Source of the DNA: Escherichia coli
GTDB taxonomy: Bacteria > Pseudomonadota > Gammaproteobacteria > Enterobacterales > Enterobacteriaceae
Direction: 5' to 3' (one strand)
NCBI RefSeq assembly: GCF_030013205.1
Contig: NZ_CP122648.1
DNA: 64,000 nt
Shown piece by piece: positions 1 through 55,112 of the stretch. Within the stretch, counting starts at the first letter, position 1. Every line of letters begins with the position of its first letter. The translations under genes and the position numbers were made by a program. The notes under the pieces are model-generated. The model saw only the letters and a list, made by a program, of their open reading frames with translations, did not search any database and was not told the origin of the DNA.

Positions 1-697
1 TGAGGAACAAATCACCACTATTATGACCAAAACGATCGTTGATTAATTTGAAGTTATCCAGATCGATAAACGCGATCATTATCTTATGGTTAAGATGTCG
101 GGCGAGAGAAAACAGCGTCGTCAGGTTTTCAAAAATCGCCCGCCGATTCGGTAGCCCGGTTAACGAGTCGGTATACGATTGCGCAATCAGCGCAGCATTG
201 GCTTCGCGCAGCTGTTCAACCAGTGCCTCTTTTTGAATATATTGTGCAATCAGTCCGGCGAATAACTGTAAAACCTGTTCCGCGCGTTCACTCCACTGGC
301 GCTTCTCACTACTGGCGGCGCAAAGCGTGCCATAGAATGATCCATCCGGTAAGTGAATTGGCGTGCTCAGAAATGTGGTGATGCCAAGATTGCGTGCCGC
401 AATACAGTCGCCCCAACGGTCAGGGACTTCATCGCTGAAAAAGCAGTTTTCATCAATGGCGCGTTTGCATAACGAGTAATCCCAGGAGACGGTAAAATTC
501 TCCGGGATGTGCATTTTCTGGCTGTTACGGGCAAACATAATATGCTGCAGGCGCGCTTCGACATCCACTTTGGTCAGGTAGGTTGATTCCATATCAGTGA
601 CCATTTCCAGCATCTCCAGAAGCTGTCGGACCAGACTTTCCAGTGACTGTTCTTTGGCAAGGGATTGCGAGACGCGGGCGATAATCTGATCTGACAC
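1..697 (-). CDS. dgcP: Diguanylate cyclase DgcP (YeaP), GAF-GGDEF protein; N-terminal 232 codons only, gene runs off the window start
   Basis: Manual minus-strand translation from GTG at 695-697 reads MSDQIIARVSQSLAKEQSLESLVRQLL...GHNSGDLFL with the frame open to position 1; not in the ORF track because it has no stop inside the window. Confidence 0.85.
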   Translation of the reverse strand, partial: MSDQIIARVSQSLAKEQSLESLVRQLLEMLEMVTDMESTYLTKVDVEARLQHIMFARNSQKMHIPENFTVSWDYSLCKRAIDENCFFSDEVPDRWGDCIAARNLGITTFLSTPIHLPDGSFYGTLCAASSEKRQWSERAEQVLQLFAGLIAQYIQKEALVEQLREANAALIAQSYTDSLTGLPNRRAIFENLTTLFSLARHLNHKIMIAFIDLDNFKLINDRFGHNSGDLFL

Positions 698-879: not shown

Positions 880-1134
880 ATGAAAATTATCAGTTTTGTT
901 CTGCCTTGCTTGCTGGTCATGGCTGGTTGTTCAACCCCTTCTCAGCCAGAAGCACCCAAACCGCCGCAGATTGGTATGGCAAATCCGGCGTCGGTCTATT
1001 GCCAGCAGAAGGGCGGGACGCTCATTCCAGTGCAGACAGCGCAAGGGGTCAGCAACAATTGCAAATTACCGGGCGGTGAAACGATTGATGAATGGGCATT
1101 GTGGCGACGGGACCATCCGGCTGGTGAAAAATAA
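880..1134 (+). CDS. yoaF: DUF333 family lipoprotein YoaF (84 aa)
   Basis: ORF 880..1134; signal peptide with lipobox LVMAGC; matches remembered YoaF. Confidence 0.85.
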   Translation: MKIISFVLPCLLVMAGCSTPSQPEAPKPPQIGMANPASVYCQQKGGTLIPVQTAQGVSNNCKLPGGETIDEWALWRRDHPAGEK

Positions 1135-1155
1135 CCGCCGGATGCTGTACTAAAA

Positions 1156-2835: not shown

Positions 2836-3657
2836 ATGATGCACAGGTTGAATCTCAATGGCTATGAACCCGACCGACACCATGAAGCCGCGGTCGCATT
2901 TTGTATTCACGCCGGAACGGATGAGTTAACCAGTCCTGTACATCAGCACCGCAAAGGACAGCTGATACTGGCGCTACATGGTGCAATTACCTGTACGGTG
3001 GAAAATGCTTTGTGGATGGTGCCACCGCAATATGCGGTTTGGATACCGGGCGGGGTGGAACATAGCAATCAAGTGACAGCTAACGCTGAACTCTGTTTTC
3101 TGTTTATCGAACCCAGCGCAGTGACAATGCCGACAACCTGTTGCACATTGAAAATATCGCCCTTATGCCGGGAATTAATTTTAACCCTGGCAAACAGGAC
3201 GTCGACTCAGCGTGCTGAGCCGATGACCCGCAGATTAATTCAGGTCCTGTTTGATGAACTCCCTCAGCAGCCACAACAACAGCTGCACCTACCCGTTTCT
3301 TCTCATCCTAAAATTCGCGCGATGGTGGAGATGATGGCGAAAGAGCCCGTCGAGTGGGGGTCATTGGGGCAATGGGCTCGCTTTTTTGCGATGAGTGAAC
3401 GCAATCTTGCCCGACTGATAGTGAAAGAGACGGGGTTGAGTTTTCGCCAGTGGCGTCAGCAGTTACAGCTGATTATGGCGCTTCAGGGATTAGTGAAAGG
3501 CGACACTGTACAGAAAGTTGCTCATACGCTGGGGTATGATTCAACAACGGCCTTTATTACTATGTTTAAGAAAGGCCTGGGGCAAACGCCAGGCCGATAT
3601 ATTGCGGGATTAACTACTGTTTCCCCACAATCAGCGAAACCAGACCCGCGGCAATAA
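2836..3657 (+). CDS. nimR: AraC/XylS-family transcriptional regulator NimR (YeaM), 273 aa
   Basis: ORF 2836..3657; C-terminal AraC-type HTH; divergent from nimT. Confidence 0.85.
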
Positions 3658-4060
3658 GCGGGCCAACCGGTACGCCGCGAAACAGCGCCACGCCCAAAAC
3701 AGTGCCCACCAGCAGCCCGGCGACCAGTTGCGGCTGGCTGCCCATTAACGTCACGCCGCGCCCACCTAGCCAGGAGACAATAACGCCTACTGCAATTGCC
3801 ACCAGCGATTTCCAGTTCAGAAACGAGTGAATCAGGGTTGAGGGCGGTAGCGTCCCGCTGGCGATGGGGGCCATAACGCCAATCGTCAGAATGATTATCC
3901 CGATACTTAGCCCCTGTTTTTCAATCCACGGGAAAAAGGTGCTTAACGGTGTGACGCGGACAATGATTAACACCAGAATTGAAACGGCGACAGTGGTGTT
4001 ATGACTGATAAAGCCCAGCGCAGCTAACCCGAGCAGGATCAGCAAAGTGACATCAAACAT
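3614..4060 (-). CDS. yeaL: UPF0756 inner membrane protein YeaL (148 aa)
   Basis: ORF 3614..4060; highly hydrophobic; 3' end overlaps nimR convergently. Confidence 0.85.
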
Positions 4061-4229: not shown

Positions 4230-4334
4230 ATGAACGATCAAATGTTCGTCGAGACACTGATTATCACGTCATCGTTTTTTGCCATTGCTGTTGTGCTGGT
4301 TTTGTCCGTTCTTCTTATCGAACGGACAGGCTAG
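4230..4334 (+). CDS. yoaI: Small membrane protein YoaI (34 aa)
   Basis: ATG at 4230, TAG at 4332-4334; translation [34 protein letters not shown]; below the ORF-track size cutoff. Confidence 0.6.
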
Positions 4335-4838
4335 TTACGCAGTGCGTCGGAAATTGACCAGTTCTGGTTGCGCAATGCGCAAATAATCCGCGGTTTTCAA
4401 AATAACGGATTTATCCAGCATGCCTGCATTGAAGGCGATTTCATCAAATCGTTCGAAGAGTAGGGGATCGGCAACCAGTTTGAGTTTTGGATGGAAGCTG
4501 AAAGGGGGGATCGCGCCGAAGACACAGCCTGTGAGTTCATCGACTTCCGCCGGGCTGACCAACGAAGCGCGTAATCCGCCTATATGGCTGGCGAGTTGGC
4601 TCAGATCGGCCTGTTGATCGGCCGCGAGGATCGCCAGAACATGTTGATTTACACCATTGCCTTTGACTTTACATACCAGTGCCTTAGCCCCCTGGCCTAA
4701 AGCGGTGCCACGAATTTCTGACACCGCTTCACATTTACCTACCGCTTCATGGGTAACGACGCGGAAGTCAGCACCTTCTTGTGATAATAAAGCGATTAAC
4801 CGCTGATGCGTCACGCTTCCTTTAGCCATTTCAGTCAT
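4335..4838 (-). CDS. yeaK: YbaK/ProX-like aminoacyl-tRNA deacylase YeaK (167 aa)
   Basis: ORF 4335..4838. Confidence 0.85.
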   Translation of the reverse strand: MTEMAKGSVTHQRLIALLSQEGADFRVVTHEAVGKCEAVSEIRGTALGQGAKALVCKVKGNGVNQHVLAILAADQQADLSQLASHIGGLRASLVSPAEVDELTGCVFGAIPPFSFHPKLKLVADPLLFERFDEIAFNAGMLDKSVILKTADYLRIAQPELVNFRRTA

Positions 4839-36500: not shown

Positions 36501-36773
36501 GTGAGTCGAGCATTGTTCGCCGTAGTATTAGCATTTCCATTAATTGCACTGGCTAACTCGCATTATCGTCCGGACGTGGAGGTGAACGTACCGCCAGAAG
36601 TGTTCAGTTCAGGCGGGCAGTCAGCGCAGCCCTATACTCAGTGCTGCGTTTATCAGGATCAAAATTATTCTGAAGGGGCGGTAATTAAAGCCGAAGGAAT
36701 ACTGCTGCAATGCCAGCGGGATGACAAAACCCTTAGCACAAATCCGCTGGTCTGGCGGCGCGTAAAGCCATAA
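36501..36773 (+). CDS. ynjH: DUF1496 protein YnjH, 90 aa, signal peptide
   Basis: ORF 36501..36773. Confidence 0.8.
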   Translation: MSRALFAVVLAFPLIALANSHYRPDVEVNVPPEVFSSGGQSAQPYTQCCVYQDQNYSEGAVIKAEGILLQCQRDDKTLSTNPLVWRRVKP

Positions 36774-37146
36774 ACGCCTCTAATAATGGAATGTCAGCAG
36801 GGGCCAGTGGATATTGCAGCGCCTCTTCAGGTGAGCACCAGACCAGCGCCTGATGTTCATGTGCCTGTAACGTCCCGTGGAAGTCGGGTACATGCCAGGC
36901 ATGAAGATGGATAATCCGCCCCGACACTTCTCGCTGATGGCTGGCAACATAGTCACCAACAGTTGCTTCGATGCCCAGTTCTTCGTTTAACTCACGCACC
37001 AGCGCCTGCTGCTGGCTTTCATCCAGCTCGACTTTACCACCGGCAAACTCCCATAATCCCGCCTGATCGCTATGCGCGGGGCGTTGCGCGAGTAAAATTT
37101 TGCCATCACGTTCGATGATGGCGGCAACAACTTCAACCATTTTCAT
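36733..37146 (-). CDS. nudG: Nudix hydrolase NudG (CTP pyrophosphohydrolase)
   Basis: ORF 36733..37146; Nudix box GGKVELDESQQQALVRELNEELGI. Confidence 0.85.
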   Translation of the reverse strand: MKMVEVVAAIIERDGKILLAQRPAHSDQAGLWEFAGGKVELDESQQQALVRELNEELGIEATVGDYVASHQREVSGRIIHLHAWHVPDFHGTLQAHEHQALVWCSPEEALQYPLAPADIPLLEAFMALRAARPADLC

Positions 37147-37232: not shown

Positions 37233-37853
37233 GTGCTAGACCGCCATCTTCATCCCCGAATTAAACCTTTGTTGCATCAGTGTGTGAAGGTGCTGGATAA
37301 ACCCGGCATTACGCCAGATGGTTTAACATTAGTGGGATTTGCCATCGGTGTGCTGGCACTGCCTTTTCTGGCGCTGGGCTGGTATCTGGCGGCGCTTGTC
37401 GTCATTTTGTTGAACAGGCTGCTTGATGGTCTGGACGGTGCGCTGGCGCGGCGCAGAGGGCTTACCGACGCGGGCGGCTTTCTCGATATTTCTCTCGATT
37501 TTCTCTTTTACGCGCTGGTGCCGTTTGGTTTTATTCTTGCTGCACCGGAGCAAAATGCGCTGGCAGGCGGCTGGCTGTTGTTTGCGTTTATCGGTACGGG
37601 CAGCAGTTTTCTCGCCTTTGCTGCACTGGCAGCAAAACATCAGATTGATAACCCCGGTTATGCACATAAGTCGTTTTACTATCTGGGGGGATTAACCGAA
37701 GGCACTGAAACGATCTTACTGTTTGTGCTGGGATGTTTATTCCCTGCATGGTTTGCGTGGTTTGCGTGGATCTTCGGTGCGTTGTGCTGGATGACGACCT
37801 TTACGCGGGTGTGGAGTGGGTATCTGACGCTGAAGTCGCTTCAGCGTCAGTAA
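37233..37853 (+). CDS. ynjF: CDP-alcohol phosphatidyltransferase-family inner membrane protein YnjF, 206 aa
   Basis: ORF 37227..37853; GTG at 37233 follows TAAGGAG by 6 nt; motif DGLDGALARR. Confidence 0.8.
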   Translation: MLDRHLHPRIKPLLHQCVKVLDKPGITPDGLTLVGFAIGVLALPFLALGWYLAALVVILLNRLLDGLDGALARRRGLTDAGGFLDISLDFLFYALVPFGFILAAPEQNALAGGWLLFAFIGTGSSFLAFAALAAKHQIDNPGYAHKSFYYLGGLTEGTETILLFVLGCLFPAWFAWFAWIFGALCWMTTFTRVWSGYLTLKSLQRQ

Positions 37854-37861
37854 TTGCAATG

Positions 37862-39169
37862 TTATTTGCTGCTGTCCGGGCCGCGTTCACCGGTTGCTAC
37901 CGGATTTTTTGGATCGCTGCTCCATTCGTACCAGCCGCCGTCGTAAACGGAGACGTTATTCCAGCCCATTGCTCGTGCGTACATAAAGGTTTCGGACGCG
38001 CGCCAGCCGGTGCCGCAGTAGAATGAAACTTGCTGATCTGGCTTGATATTCCATGCTTTCCACATAGCGGTAATATCATCGGCGCTACGCATGGTGCCAT
38101 CCGGGTTATGGAAATCTTCCATATGCGTCGAGTCGCTACCTGCGTGTCCCCAACGTGCTCCGGCTATTTCACCTTTTGGTTTAATATAGCTGTAACCGCT
38201 GGTCGTACCGATAAATTCTGGCCACGAACGAATGCTCACCAGCGATGCATCCTGGCGATGCAGCAGTCCACGCGCCTGTTCCATATCAAGCATCAGTTGC
38301 GGTTGTGCCGGGATCTTCACGCCGAAATCCGGTTCCGCTTTCACTTTCGGTGGCGTTCCGCGCTCAACGGGCAGTCCCGCGTCGGACCAGGTTTGCCAGC
38401 CGCCGTCCAGCAGGCGGACATCTTTCACGCCAGCGTAGAGCATAATTTGTGCCACACGCGCTGCAGCGTATACGTCACGCCCGTACAGAATGACCGTGGT
38501 GTCATGGCGAATGCCGTGTTTTGCCAACATCGCTTTTAGTTGTTCATCAGAAACTTTGTTCCACAGCGGTTCGCTTTCCACTTCGTTGGTATCGATGTAG
38601 TCAGCGCCGGGAATATGGCTGATAAGGTAAAGCTTAGGAGCGCCCCAGGCCGCTTCAATGACTTTCCAGTCACCGGCAGGTTTCGCCGTAACCTCTTTAC
38701 CTTGTTGCAGGTCGTGCAGCCATTGCGGATAAACCAGCTGCTCAAAATGCGGCAGTTTTTGGAGACGGGAAGGTTCGCTTAGCGCGTCACTCAGAATGGA
38801 GATATGCGTAAAACCTGCTTTTTGCAGTCGCGTTTTGACGGCGTCGACATCTTTGTCATTACCGTACAGCGCCACCGGAGCATCGGCTTTCAGGTTATGT
38901 TGCTTGATCCACGCGTTAAGCTGTTCGGTGCTCATTTTGTCGAGCCAGCTAGCAGAGAGGTTTAAGGCGGCAGGTTCATGACCAGAAGGGCCATTTAAGG
39001 TTTGTGGCCAGCCGTTATAAAACGCGCTGGGGCGAGTATCTATCGCTTTGCCATTTTGTTGTTGAAGCTGGTCAAGTGTAAGAGGCTTCGCCAGTTCAGC
39101 GGCCCACGAAGAAGCGCAAGCCAGCCCTAAAGCCATTGCCAGCGCGGTCATTTGAGAAACACGTTTCAT
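37862..39169 (-). CDS. ynjE: Periplasmic three-domain rhodanese (thiosulfate sulfurtransferase) YnjE, 435 aa
   Basis: ORF 37862..39184 trimmed to ATG 39169 (MKRVSQMTALAMALGLACASSWA...); active-site CGTGWR. Confidence 0.85.
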   Translation of the reverse strand: MKRVSQMTALAMALGLACASSWAAELAKPLTLDQLQQQNGKAIDTRPSAFYNGWPQTLNGPSGHEPAALNLSASWLDKMSTEQLNAWIKQHNLKADAPVALYGNDKDVDAVKTRLQKAGFTHISILSDALSEPSRLQKLPHFEQLVYPQWLHDLQQGKEVTAKPAGDWKVIEAAWGAPKLYLISHIPGADYIDTNEVESEPLWNKVSDEQLKAMLAKHGIRHDTTVILYGRDVYAAARVAQIMLYAGVKDVRLLDGGWQTWSDAGLPVERGTPPKVKAEPDFGVKIPAQPQLMLDMEQARGLLHRQDASLVSIRSWPEFIGTTSGYSYIKPKGEIAGARWGHAGSDSTHMEDFHNPDGTMRSADDITAMWKAWNIKPDQQVSFYCGTGWRASETFMYARAMGWNNVSVYDGGWYEWSSDPKNPVATGERGPDSSK

Positions 39170-39889: not shown

Positions 39890-41424
39890 TAGCGGAGTCC
39901 TTGTCTGACATAACCTACCCATTTTGCGACTAACGCGGTCAGGGCAAAAATAATAAGCGGTAATAGCAGTTGCCATAAAGCCTGGGCGGCGAGAATACCG
40001 TTGCTGCCGCCGCTGCTTAATGCCACCGCCTCAGTGGTGAGCGTCGGAAAACGCCCCGCGCCCAGCCACAGCGTCGGCATATACTGCGCAATACTGACTG
40101 AAAATCCCACCGCGAAGGCAATCAGCGTAGGGCGTAGCATAAGCGGACATTTCACGTAAAAGAAGATTTTGGCCCGCGACCAGCCCAGTGTTTGCGCAAT
40201 CAAAATTAACCGTGAATCAATGCGCTGCCAGGCGGGTTGCAGGATAAACAGCATCCACGGCATTACCCACAGCAGATGCCCCCAGACCACCGCCGTCCAG
40301 CTTCCATCCAGGTTCAGCCATAGCGCCAGCGTGTACTGGCACGCCACCAGCGGCAGAGCGGGTAATAAAATGGGCAACCATAGCCACAACTGGCGACGCT
40401 GTGGCCCCCATTCCAGCCACAGCAGTAACAGGAGCAAAGCGATGAATGCCGCCACCAGCCCCATTGTCAGGCTGTTGATGAGCGCTTCACTATTGATCGT
40501 CGACTGATCCGCGAGGATCGCCAGCAGAACCACACACAGCACACCGGTTAAGGGTAAAAAACTCGCCAGCGTAATGCCTGGCAATAAAGGCGTGGCAGGC
40601 TTACGAACGCCATCTACGCGGGGAATAGTACGCCGCCAGCTACGCCATAGCAGATAGCCCAGCAAAACGTAGGCGGCGAGTAACAGCATCAGCAGCAGGC
40701 TGGCGAGTGCGCCTTTCGTTTGTTGATCGGCGTCGCCCTGAGTTAACCACTGCCAGCTAATTACTGCCAGCGTCGGGGGATTACCTGGCCCAAGGATAAT
40801 CGCCACATCCACGACCGACAGCGACCAGGCGACAATCGCCAGCATCGCCATTGCCAGTGCAGGTGCGACGGAGGGCAACAACAGCCAGTTCAGGCATTGC
40901 CAGCGGCTGTAGCCCAGCGAATCCAGTACAATAACTTGCTGCAACAGCCGTTTTTCGCTCAATACTGCCGCTAAGAGCCACAGCAGAAATGCGCTTTCTT
41001 TCACTGCAAGGGTGAGGCCCAGACCGATGCCAAATCGATCCATTGGCGGAGTGAAATACGGGAAATAGTCATAAAGCAGCCCTCCGTCAGCAAAGAGCAG
41101 AAGGGCGCTGGTGGCAAAAGCCACATGGGGAATGGCGAGCAGCCACGGCAGACGGGCGCACATACGCTGCCATTTCGGCCCTGGCCACAGCGTCACAATC
41201 ACCAGCAGGGCAATCAACAACGCCCCGACCGCCGCGATGGTTGTCGACACCAGCGTTGCCAGTAATGCCTGCGGTAACTGTGGATCGGCAAATAACGTCT
41301 GCCAGTGTGTCAACGACAAAGCAGGCGATATCAGCGTGAGAGCTGCCGGGATCAGCGGTGCATAAATCACCGCCACCATCGCCCACAGCAAAAAGATTAA
41401 TGCGTACCGTAACGGTGTAGCCAT
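39889..41424 (-). CDS. ynjC: ABC transporter permease YnjC (fused two-domain), 511 aa
   Basis: ORF 39889..41448 trimmed to ATG 41424. Confidence 0.85.
   Translation of the reverse strand: MATPLRYALIFLLWAMVAVIYAPLIPAALTLISPALSLTHWQTLFADPQLPQALLATLVSTTIAAVGALLIALLVIVTLWPGPKWQRMCARLPWLLAIPHVAFATSALLLFADGGLLYDYFPYFTPPMDRFGIGLGLTLAVKESAFLLWLLAAVLSEKRLLQQVIVLDSLGYSRWQCLNWLLLPSVAPALAMAMLAIVAWSLSVVDVAIILGPGNPPTLAVISWQWLTQGDADQQTKGALASLLLMLLLAAYVLLGYLLWRSWRRTIPRVDGVRKPATPLLPGITLASFLPLTGVLCVVLLAILADQSTINSEALINSLTMGLVAAFIALLLLLLWLEWGPQRRQLWLWLPILLPALPLVACQYTLALWLNLDGSWTAVVWGHLLWVMPWMLFILQPAWQRIDSRLILIAQTLGWSRAKIFFYVKCPLMLRPTLIAFAVGFSVSIAQYMPTLWLGAGRFPTLTTEAVALSSGGSNGILAAQALWQLLLPLIIFALTALVAKWVGYVRQGLR

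Positions 41425-53611: not shown

Positions 53612-55112
<1,501 letters not shown>

Follow-up and report, generated by a model that had tools for sequence, protein, structure and literature searches.

Convergent overlaps of coding sequences in Escherichia coli were surveyed by Lillo & Krakauer 2007 (PMC2174442), who counted 58 of them and explained them by stop-codon mutation. The phase (123:132) was the commonest in that survey, at 46% of the overlaps observed against the 39% that stop-codon mutation would predict, and 20% of the E. coli genes in convergent overlaps had embedded predicted rho-independent terminators. Overlapping transcription of convergent genes has been mapped with ExcludonFinder (Sanmartin et al., NAR 2025, PMC12288877), the pairs listed being those whose transcripts overlapped in 50% or more of 58 RNA-seq data sets of MG1655. 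Taken together, excludon pairs were higher in synteny and were co-expressed less in single cells, and the authors could not validate the convergent pairs by p19 dsRNA capture (PMC12288877). Also bidirectional terminators have been described from such junctions: according to a preprint (bioRxiv 10.1101/2022.10.23.513370, citing Ju et al. 2019), they are pervasive between convergent E. coli genes and neither intrinsic-like nor Rho-dependent.

The window, i.e. the whole 64,000-nt stretch of DNA analyzed here, belongs to the E. coli core chromosome (dgcP-katE region, ~39-40 min). In the genome comparison it was 100% identical to NZ_CP028192.1 (swine E. coli strain CFSAN018748), the RefSeq annotation of which was used for the whole window, with the K-12 annotation for comparison. 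RefSeq includes ten convergent junctions in the window, and at three of these the coding sequences overlap:

36733-36773, ynjH on the plus and nudG on the minus strand, shared 3' end of 41 bp (ORF listing and RefSeq)
3614-3657, nimR on the plus and yeaL on the minus strand, shared 3' end of 44 bp (ORF listing and RefSeq)
54225-54265, ves on the plus and cho on the minus strand, shared 3' end of 41 bp (ORF listing and RefSeq)

These positions and lengths had been given in the preliminary description, and they proved exact by the ORF listing, with which RefSeq agrees. The same three CDS pairs are annotated as overlapping both in NZ_CP028192.1 and in K-12; in K-12 the ynjH/nudG overlap is 35 bp and NudG has 135 aa. 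Three other convergent junctions of the window are also tight, namely yoaI/yeaK (0 bp), ynjF/ynjE (8 bp) and yoaF/yeaO (21 bp). The six genes of the three overlapping pairs are real conserved coding genes: Pfam families were found for five of them (DUF1496, NUDIX, HTH_18/AraC, DUF441, HutD), and homologues of Cho with Cho_C/UvrC_M domains number in the thousands. The three tail-to-tail overlaps are thus genuine and correctly annotated. They are already present in the literature as CDS overlaps and as overlapping transcripts, and they are an ordinary by-product of genome compaction.

The overlap lengths of all three pairs are 2 mod 3, and at the level of codons the positions pair 1:1, 2:3 and 3:2, which is the phase written (123:132). 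Both in the window and in K-12 the stop of each gene lies inside the reading frame of its partner in all three pairs, and for nudG and ynjH this mutual arrangement holds in 62 Enterobacteriaceae loci. The distance that the antisense frame reads from the stop of a gene to its first stop was determined for the 58 annotated genes of the window. In the observed phase the first antisense stop was reached at a median of 44 nt (mean 64), so 41-44 bp is what the first available stop gives and the length of the overlaps is unremarkable. From the 58 overlaps counted genome-wide, ~0.8 convergent overlaps are expected per 64 kb (Poisson P(>=3) ~0.05), which makes the three overlaps a mild local excess, noticed post hoc. 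In comparison to the overlaps formed by stop-codon loss or spacer deletion (PMC2174442), nothing material differs except that the window is slightly richer in them: the 3'-3' length of less than 50 bp, the phase, the limit set by the first stop and the elongation of one partner past its domain are all the same.

Gene ends and their variation among genera

The coding sequences of the first pair are the following:

36501-36773, plus strand, ynjH CDS, 90 aa, DUF1496 family protein, the constrained partner
36733-37146, minus strand, nudG CDS, NUDIX CTP pyrophosphohydrolase, 137 aa in the window and 135 aa in K-12

A species scan with one genome per species found 80 loci with a NudG relative, and an overlap table was built from the ORF starts. 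In 77 of these 80 Enterobacterales loci ynjH was convergent with nudG by its ORF. The set used for the Enterobacteriaceae included 62 sequences, i.e. the window itself and 61 other loci from Escherichia, Citrobacter, Salmonella, Kosakonia, Kluyvera, Buttiauxella, Enterobacter and others.

Pfam places DUF1496 at residues 33-89 of the 90 in YnjH and NUDIX at residues 2-125 of NudG, the residues ~126-137 of the latter forming a variable tail within the overlap. The alignment of PDB homologues to NudG reaches only to ~residue 120-127. The C-terminal ..STNPLVWRRVKP of YnjH is kept across genera: the ending ..NPLVWRRVKP was almost invariant in the 62 Enterobacteriaceae loci, and the longer C-terminus ..LLQCQRDxKTxSTNPLVWRRVKP* is kept to the last residues, its core being recognisable even in Yersinia. 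The conservation of NudG stops at ..LAPADIPLLEAF, and beyond this the sequence differs between families. NudG of the Enterobacteriaceae has 132, 135, 136, 137 or 138 aa, with the stop always inside ynjH.

The nudG/ynjH overlap was 41 bp in 32 of the 62 sequences, 35 bp in 20, 38, 44 and 26 bp in three each and 23 bp in one, and its phase was the same in all of them. In Erwinia, Yersinia and Serratia the two genes are still neighbours, either separated by gaps of 4-30 bp (one of 100 bp) or overlapping by 8, 12 or 50 bp. The ynjH stop was located at -1 from the end of the NudG PLLxxF codon in 61 of the 62 Enterobacteriaceae sequences, whereas in Erwinia, Yersinia and Serratia it was 11-52 nt downstream of this codon (173 nt in one Serratia locus). 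This difference in spacing indicates a single loss of the spacer and of the original NudG end, at the base of the family. The invariance of the spacing across Enterobacteriaceae could also reflect selection for coupling, which is a counter-point to a passive origin.

For the 62 loci, column entropy was calculated from columns free of gaps, with the ynjH stop as the anchor. Within the overlap the entropy was 0.37, 0.26 and 1.03 at ynjH codon positions 1, 2 and 3, corresponding to NudG positions 1, 3 and 2. The second codon position of NudG is thus the most variable one inside the overlap and the least variable one in the nudG-only sequence, where the entropies at codon positions 1, 2 and 3 were 0.71, 0.58 and 1.46. 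Since the entropy follows the periodicity of ynjH, the overlap evolves as ynjH coding sequence and the NudG tail is passive. The alternatives found in the NudG tail (R/P, A/D/V, R/T/K/I and P/L) are all middle-base changes, as predicted for a passive tail. Dual-coding constraint on the NudG tail was ruled out by the entropy periodicity together with the middle-base substitutions and the stop shifts.

The third-position entropy of ynjH was 1.03 within the overlap and 1.41 outside it, and this lower value leaves room for a weak second constraint.

A single polymorphism separates the two overlap lengths found in E. coli:

36740, A/T SNP, in ynjH ACA/ACT (both Thr, synonymous), in nudG codon 136 TTG (Leu, window) or TAG (stop, K-12)

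This is the sole base of the overlap differing between the window and K-12, and it sets the overlap to 41 bp in the former and 35 bp in the latter. The 1-kb stretch around ynjH/nudG had matches in 5423 of the 5426 complete E. coli genomes. A 35-mer centred on 36740 was found with the window allele in 18 and with the K-12 allele in at least 3634 of the 5426; the remaining genomes have other differences within the 35-mer.

In the second pair the constrained partner is YeaL:

2836-3657, plus strand, nimR CDS, 273 aa, AraC-type regulator, HTH_18 ending at residue 255 (Pfam)
3614-4060, minus strand, yeaL CDS, 148 aa, DUF441 membrane protein, DUF441 at residues 7-145 (Pfam), the constrained partner

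The YeaL homologues across genera were 84-91% identical, 148 aa long and had the C-terminal tail kept. NimR is variable past ..GQTPGRY, and its E. coli tail exceeds that of other genera by ~9 aa. NimR homologues of 263-264 aa, overlapping yeaL by 17 bp, occur in Klebsiella, an Enterobacter-group genome and Kluyvera; in Salmonella the overlap is 21 bp and in a different phase. The stop of the shorter NimR proteins is the antisense of a CTT-ATT (Leu-Ile) pair of YeaL. E. coli YeaL has CTG-ATT-GTG at this site, and NimR therefore continues for nine more codons until the following CTT-ATT. The convergent neighbour of yeaL in Cedecea is an unrelated ABC-permease gene with an overlap of 20 bp, and in Atlantibacter, which is without nimR, an 87-bp gap beside yeaL holds an ordinary intergenic hairpin terminator. 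Selection on the NimR tail in the overlap was not observed, as both the length and the phase differ between genera.

The third pair differs from the other two in having variable tails on both sides:

53690-54265, plus strand, ves CDS, 191 aa, HutD family, HutD ending ~16 aa before the stop (Pfam)
54225-55112, minus strand, cho CDS, 295 aa, excinuclease Cho

The last six residues of Ves, SPDQVQ, are an extension present in Escherichia/Citrobacter, and in Kosakonia, Enterobacter hormaechei and Leclercia Ves ends ..W(L/M)(A/P)GH*. The Cho tail after ..YEI(T/I)EL varies both in sequence and in length, the homologues having 286-302 aa and unaligned C-termini. As both tails are variable, both are free. 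The ves/cho overlap was 41 bp in Citrobacter freundii, 32 bp in Leclercia, 23 bp in Enterobacter hormaechei and 4 bp in Kosakonia. In the genus comparison ves was absent from the Salmonella locus, where cho was present. When all three pairs are viewed together, NudG, NimR and Ves have Pfam domains that stop short of the overlap, and those of YnjH and YeaL reach the protein end.

The preliminary description had also raised the possibility that stops had been mis-called or that one partner should be shortened, so that the true proteins would end before the shared bases. Such an artefact of annotation would suit the poor characterisation of ynjH, yeaL and ves and the position of the NudG, NimR, Ves and Cho tails outside recognised domains. 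However, the position of a stop codon is fixed by the sequence and the six frames are open to their stops, all six proteins belong to conserved families whose ends agree in many genera, and the codon-position entropy reflects purifying selection on ynjH and nudG. Furthermore, the structure of full-length E. coli NudG (135 aa) has been solved (PDB 2RRK), and GWIPS-viz 2018 illustrates gene overlap in strand-specific ribosome profiling with nudG/ynjH (PMC5753223). Over more than 60 species the stops were either conserved or moved only within the partner gene. An artefact therefore has practically no chance of being the explanation, and this reading is effectively already refuted.

Mis-called stops were ruled out by the stops being kept or shifting only inside the partner gene across genera, and by 2RRK.

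Terminators and RNA structure at the junctions

Terminators were searched for with consensus scans and with a relaxed ViennaRNA hairpin plus T-tract scan, and the spy, gapA and osmE controls were recovered. Neither of the scans found a credible intrinsic terminator within 260 nt of the stops of nimR, nudG, ves and cho, and the 3' side of ynjH gave only weak terminator-like hits. One candidate was detected, for yeaL:

3565-3595, minus strand, candidate intrinsic terminator of yeaL, hairpin 3595..3574, GGCCTGGCGTTTGCCCCAGGCC then TTTCTTAAA, GC-rich stem, dG -12.7 kcal/mol

The candidate starts 19 nt past the yeaL stop and ends 40 nt past it, and it lies within nimR codons 244-254. A near-identical yeaL element with TTTTTT is present in Salmonella, while in Klebsiella, Enterobacter and Kluyvera the hairpin stem is weaker and not kept. 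The candidate resembles the terminators embedded in the CDS of a convergent neighbour (PMC2174442), but it is the sole such element among the six genes here, the other five being without a recognisable intrinsic terminator. The statement in the preliminary description that convergent overlaps leave no room for terminators is too strong, since the CDS of the partner can itself hold a terminator, as nimR holds the yeaL candidate.

Each overlap was folded together with 40 nt on both sides, on both strands, and compared to shuffled sequences. No special RNA structure was found in these regions: the z-scores of the two strands were -0.9 and +0.4 for ynjH/nudG, -0.85 and -0.83 for ves/cho and -1.5 and -1.6 for nimR/yeaL, all within the shuffle expectation. 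Only the nimR/yeaL region included a local hairpin (3574-3595), which is able to form on both strands.

The Term-seq supplements of Adams et al. 2021 that were searched (PMC7815308) did not include RNA 3' ends at the three junctions. The same source reports the spy terminator and, within cho, a region of Rho termination (K-12 1823784). Past the convergent genes gdhA and pncA it also places Rho regions, which are antisense to ynjI and ydjE. The ynjI and ydjE regions would fit a removal of read-through antisense RNA by Rho in this part of the chromosome, and Rho may act in the same way on the three pairs.

The scarcity of intrinsic terminators could also be understood if the junctions were overlapping bidirectional terminators of the collision type, at which the polymerases would pause at a hairpin element, dislodge each other and leave defined 3' ends. 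According to the preprint (bioRxiv 10.1101/2022.10.23.513370), such terminators are pervasive at E. coli convergent genes, and in the RNAP-collision model presented there and in Ju et al. 2019 they are, like the present junctions, formed by convergent genes without canonical intrinsic or Rho signals. Also the hairpin at 3574-3595, forming on both strands, and the five of the six genes without an intrinsic terminator would fit this. Unlike in those systems, however, the ynjH/nudG and ves/cho junctions are without a significant hairpin element, the folding of the junctions being no better than that of shuffles, and the antisense coverage extends far past the junctions. Antisense reads cover the whole of nudG and cho instead of stopping at the junction, and p19 duplexes are located 100-400 nt past the ves/cho junction (PMC7373196). 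Furthermore, the weak expression of these genes would make collisions rare. Collision termination is on these grounds a very unlikely explanation.

Antisense transcription across the pairs

All three pairs, cho-ves, nudG-ynjH and yeaL-nimR, are among the 165 convergent pairs of ExcludonFinder, and so are ynjE-ynjF, yeaK-yoaI and yeaO-yoaF (PMC12288877). In the wild-type data of Huang et al. 2020 (Table S1c, PMC7373196) the sense and antisense RPM were 9.0 and 45.4 for nudG and 80.0 and 2.7 for ynjH, 7.9 and 19.2 for cho and 156.7 and 4.7 for ves, and 4.5 and 2.9 for yeaL and 17.6 and 0.84 for nimR, these being single-library values from one study, of K-12 rather than of the window strain. Sense reads are thus outnumbered by antisense reads in nudG and cho, and in yeaL the latter amount to about two-thirds of the former (PMC7373196).

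The antisense reads of nudG or cho could stem from independent antisense promoters and not from read-through.

RNase III-cut duplexes of 21-22 bp captured with p19 have been reported inside cho and ves, ~100-400 nt past the junction (PMC7373196 Table S3), at 66-117 RPM of p19 dsRNA in comparison to 4-18 RPM in the neighbours spy and nadE (PMC7373196). The sense reads did not rise in the two rnc mutants of the same study, changing from 9.0 to 3.8 and 5.6 in nudG and from 7.9 to 6.4 and 5.7 in cho (single libraries, PMC7373196). The preliminary description had taken the overlaps to imply antisense 3' UTR interactions or transcriptional interference between the partners. This is partly borne out in that the transcripts do overlap in vivo (PMC12288877, PMC7373196); any regulatory consequence is putative, and the sense reads of nudG and cho did not rise in the rnc mutants.

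These data also bear on the reading of the overlaps as convergent excludons selected for regulation, in which the partners would repress each other through polymerase collision or through cleavage of duplexes by RNase III, for example the stress-induced ves against the SOS-induced cho. Such regulation would agree with the presence of all three pairs in the E. coli excludome (PMC12288877), with the duplexes captured in cho and ves (PMC7373196), with the strongly asymmetric expression (ynjH 80 against nudG 9 RPM, ves 157 against cho 8 RPM) and with nudG and ynjH being convergent neighbours in 77 of the 80 Enterobacterales loci. The MG1655 convergent excludons are similar to the present pairs, which are named among them, in being convergent neighbours with overlapping transcripts (PMC12288877). 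The overlap here is, however, forced by the CDS overlap and not by long 3' UTRs, and reciprocal repression, the trait defining excludons, is putative here. As interlocked coding sequences necessarily score as RNA-seq overlap, their place in the map does not count as evidence for regulation; the single-cell evidence applies to excludon pairs as a class, and the convergent pairs were not validated by p19 in that study (PMC12288877). The overlap lengths are labile, varying from 4 to 41 bp in ves/cho and from 17 to 44 bp in nimR/yeaL; cho has been kept in Salmonella without ves, and yeaL in Atlantibacter without nimR; the variation within the nudG/ynjH overlap is that of single-gene constraint; and the sense reads of nudG and cho were no higher in the rnc mutants (PMC7373196). 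Selection for mutual repression is consequently unlikely to explain the overlaps.

A narrower case starts from the spacing kept in 61 of the 62 Enterobacteriaceae, where the ynjH stop abuts the last conserved helix of NudG. In this case the CDS overlap of nudG-ynjH would underlie a functional convergent excludon that has been conserved, with transcription of ynjH, encoding a secreted DUF1496 protein, crossing the whole of nudG and throttling its nucleotide-sanitising Nudix hydrolase; it appears highly improbable. If this coupling were true, the SNP-controlled length of the NudG tail (35 vs 41 bp of overlap) would be a by-product of it.

Origin of the overlaps

The overlaps most probably have a passive origin: they are genuine gene ends between which the spacer was lost, and they would since have been maintained passively. 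That the overlaps are labile and show single-gene constraint speaks against the shared stretch itself being under selection. With the loss of the spacer between two facing genes, the ends of the coding sequences would have become interlocked, at least one protein of each pair acquiring a short, presumably dispensable tail that continues past its folded domain in the antisense frame of the neighbour to the first stop. In ynjH/nudG the C-terminus of YnjH would dictate the DNA, and NudG from ~126 onward would be a free-riding tail, its sequence and length shifting whenever ynjH changes synonymously. The corresponding roles in nimR/yeaL would belong to YeaL as the constrained partner and NimR as the bearer of the tail, while ves/cho may represent two free tails written over each other.

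Because the coding ends interlock, any full-length mRNA runs antisense to the end of the partner gene. Transcripts of the genes without an intrinsic terminator would probably read into the partner until stopped by Rho or by an opposing polymerase. The antisense RNA over the weaker nudG, cho and yeaL would, under passive origin, come from read-through of the stronger ynjH, ves and nimR, and it would be cleared by Rho, by collision or by RNase III, probably with only a small effect on expression.

No stop in the annotation of the six genes is in need of revision. In expression studies the reads of nudG, cho and yeaL need to be resolved by strand, because antisense reads exceed the sense reads over the first two and reach about two-thirds of them over the third. 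Beyond such bookkeeping the overlaps are of little importance, and any regulatory role of the antisense transcription is a modest question, already framed by the published excludon map. The three pairs illustrate how convergent overlaps are formed, i.e. through loss of the spacer and a free-riding tail, the length of which is toggled by synonymous changes in the neighbour.

Correspondence with the annotated swine isolate

The coordinates carried over from the annotation of NZ_CP028192.1 (swine E. coli CFSAN018748) were shifted by 1 bp throughout the first 32 kb of the window and by 9 bp from about 36.8 kb to about 53.6 kb. The 100% match between this genome and the window applies to the 1-kb stretch that was compared, and the two offsets show that small indels separate them outside that stretch. 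According to the annotation of the same genome, dgcP is a pseudogene with an internal stop. At the position of the K-12 gene ynjI (DUF1266) the window has an IS1397 transposase (IS3 family) that contains a programmed frameshift, and ynjI, annotated in K-12, has no annotation in the window strain. The features of these regions are:

Window 1-696: dgcP, pseudogene
Window 33409: end of topB, flanking IS1397
Window 33516-34864: IS1397 transposase
Window 34922: beginning of the gdhA CDS (the stop end of gdhA), flanking IS1397

Tight junctions and co-directional overlaps

Besides the three overlapping pairs, the annotation has another three convergent junctions that are very tight, each of them also named as a convergent excludon in the ExcludonFinder map (PMC12288877):

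Window 1134-1155: yoaF/yeaO, convergent, 21 bp between stops
Window 4230-4335: yoaI/yeaK, convergent, 0 bp between stops
Window 37853-37862: ynjF/ynjE, convergent, 8 bp between stops

Among co-directional genes, the annotation has ynjB and ynjC overlapping by 28 bp (window ~41397-41424) and the genes of the ast operon by 4-8 bp, the latter being a spacing typical of translational coupling.

The 3' end of yeaL in Cedecea

In Cedecea lapagei (locus L089), nimR is absent and an unrelated convergent ABC-permease gene overlaps the 3' end of yeaL by 20 bp (2931-2950). Comparison of the tails showed that the stop of the ABC-permease gene lies at the same antisense CTT-ATT of yeaL, and the yeaL end has therefore been overwritten independently in this species.

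The ves start and transcript ends within cho

The annotated start of ves agrees with K-12 and gives a product of 191 aa, versus 212 aa from a TTG at 53627, from which the frame is open for 63 nt 5' of the annotated ATG (window 53627-53689). In Salmonella enterica (L091 2909-2984) ves is absent, and cho (302 aa) is followed by 74 bp, including a hairpin-like sequence, and then by spy.

The supplements of Adams et al. (PMC7815308) place an RNA 3' end inside cho on the sense strand, 24 nt from the cho start (window ~55088, K-12 1823539), which supplement 3 marks as Rho-dependent ('Yes', Rho score 3.5). They also place a Rho termination region on the same strand about 270 nt from the start (window ~54843, K-12 1823784). 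Because of these two internal sites, most uninduced cho transcripts may stop short of the ves overlap.
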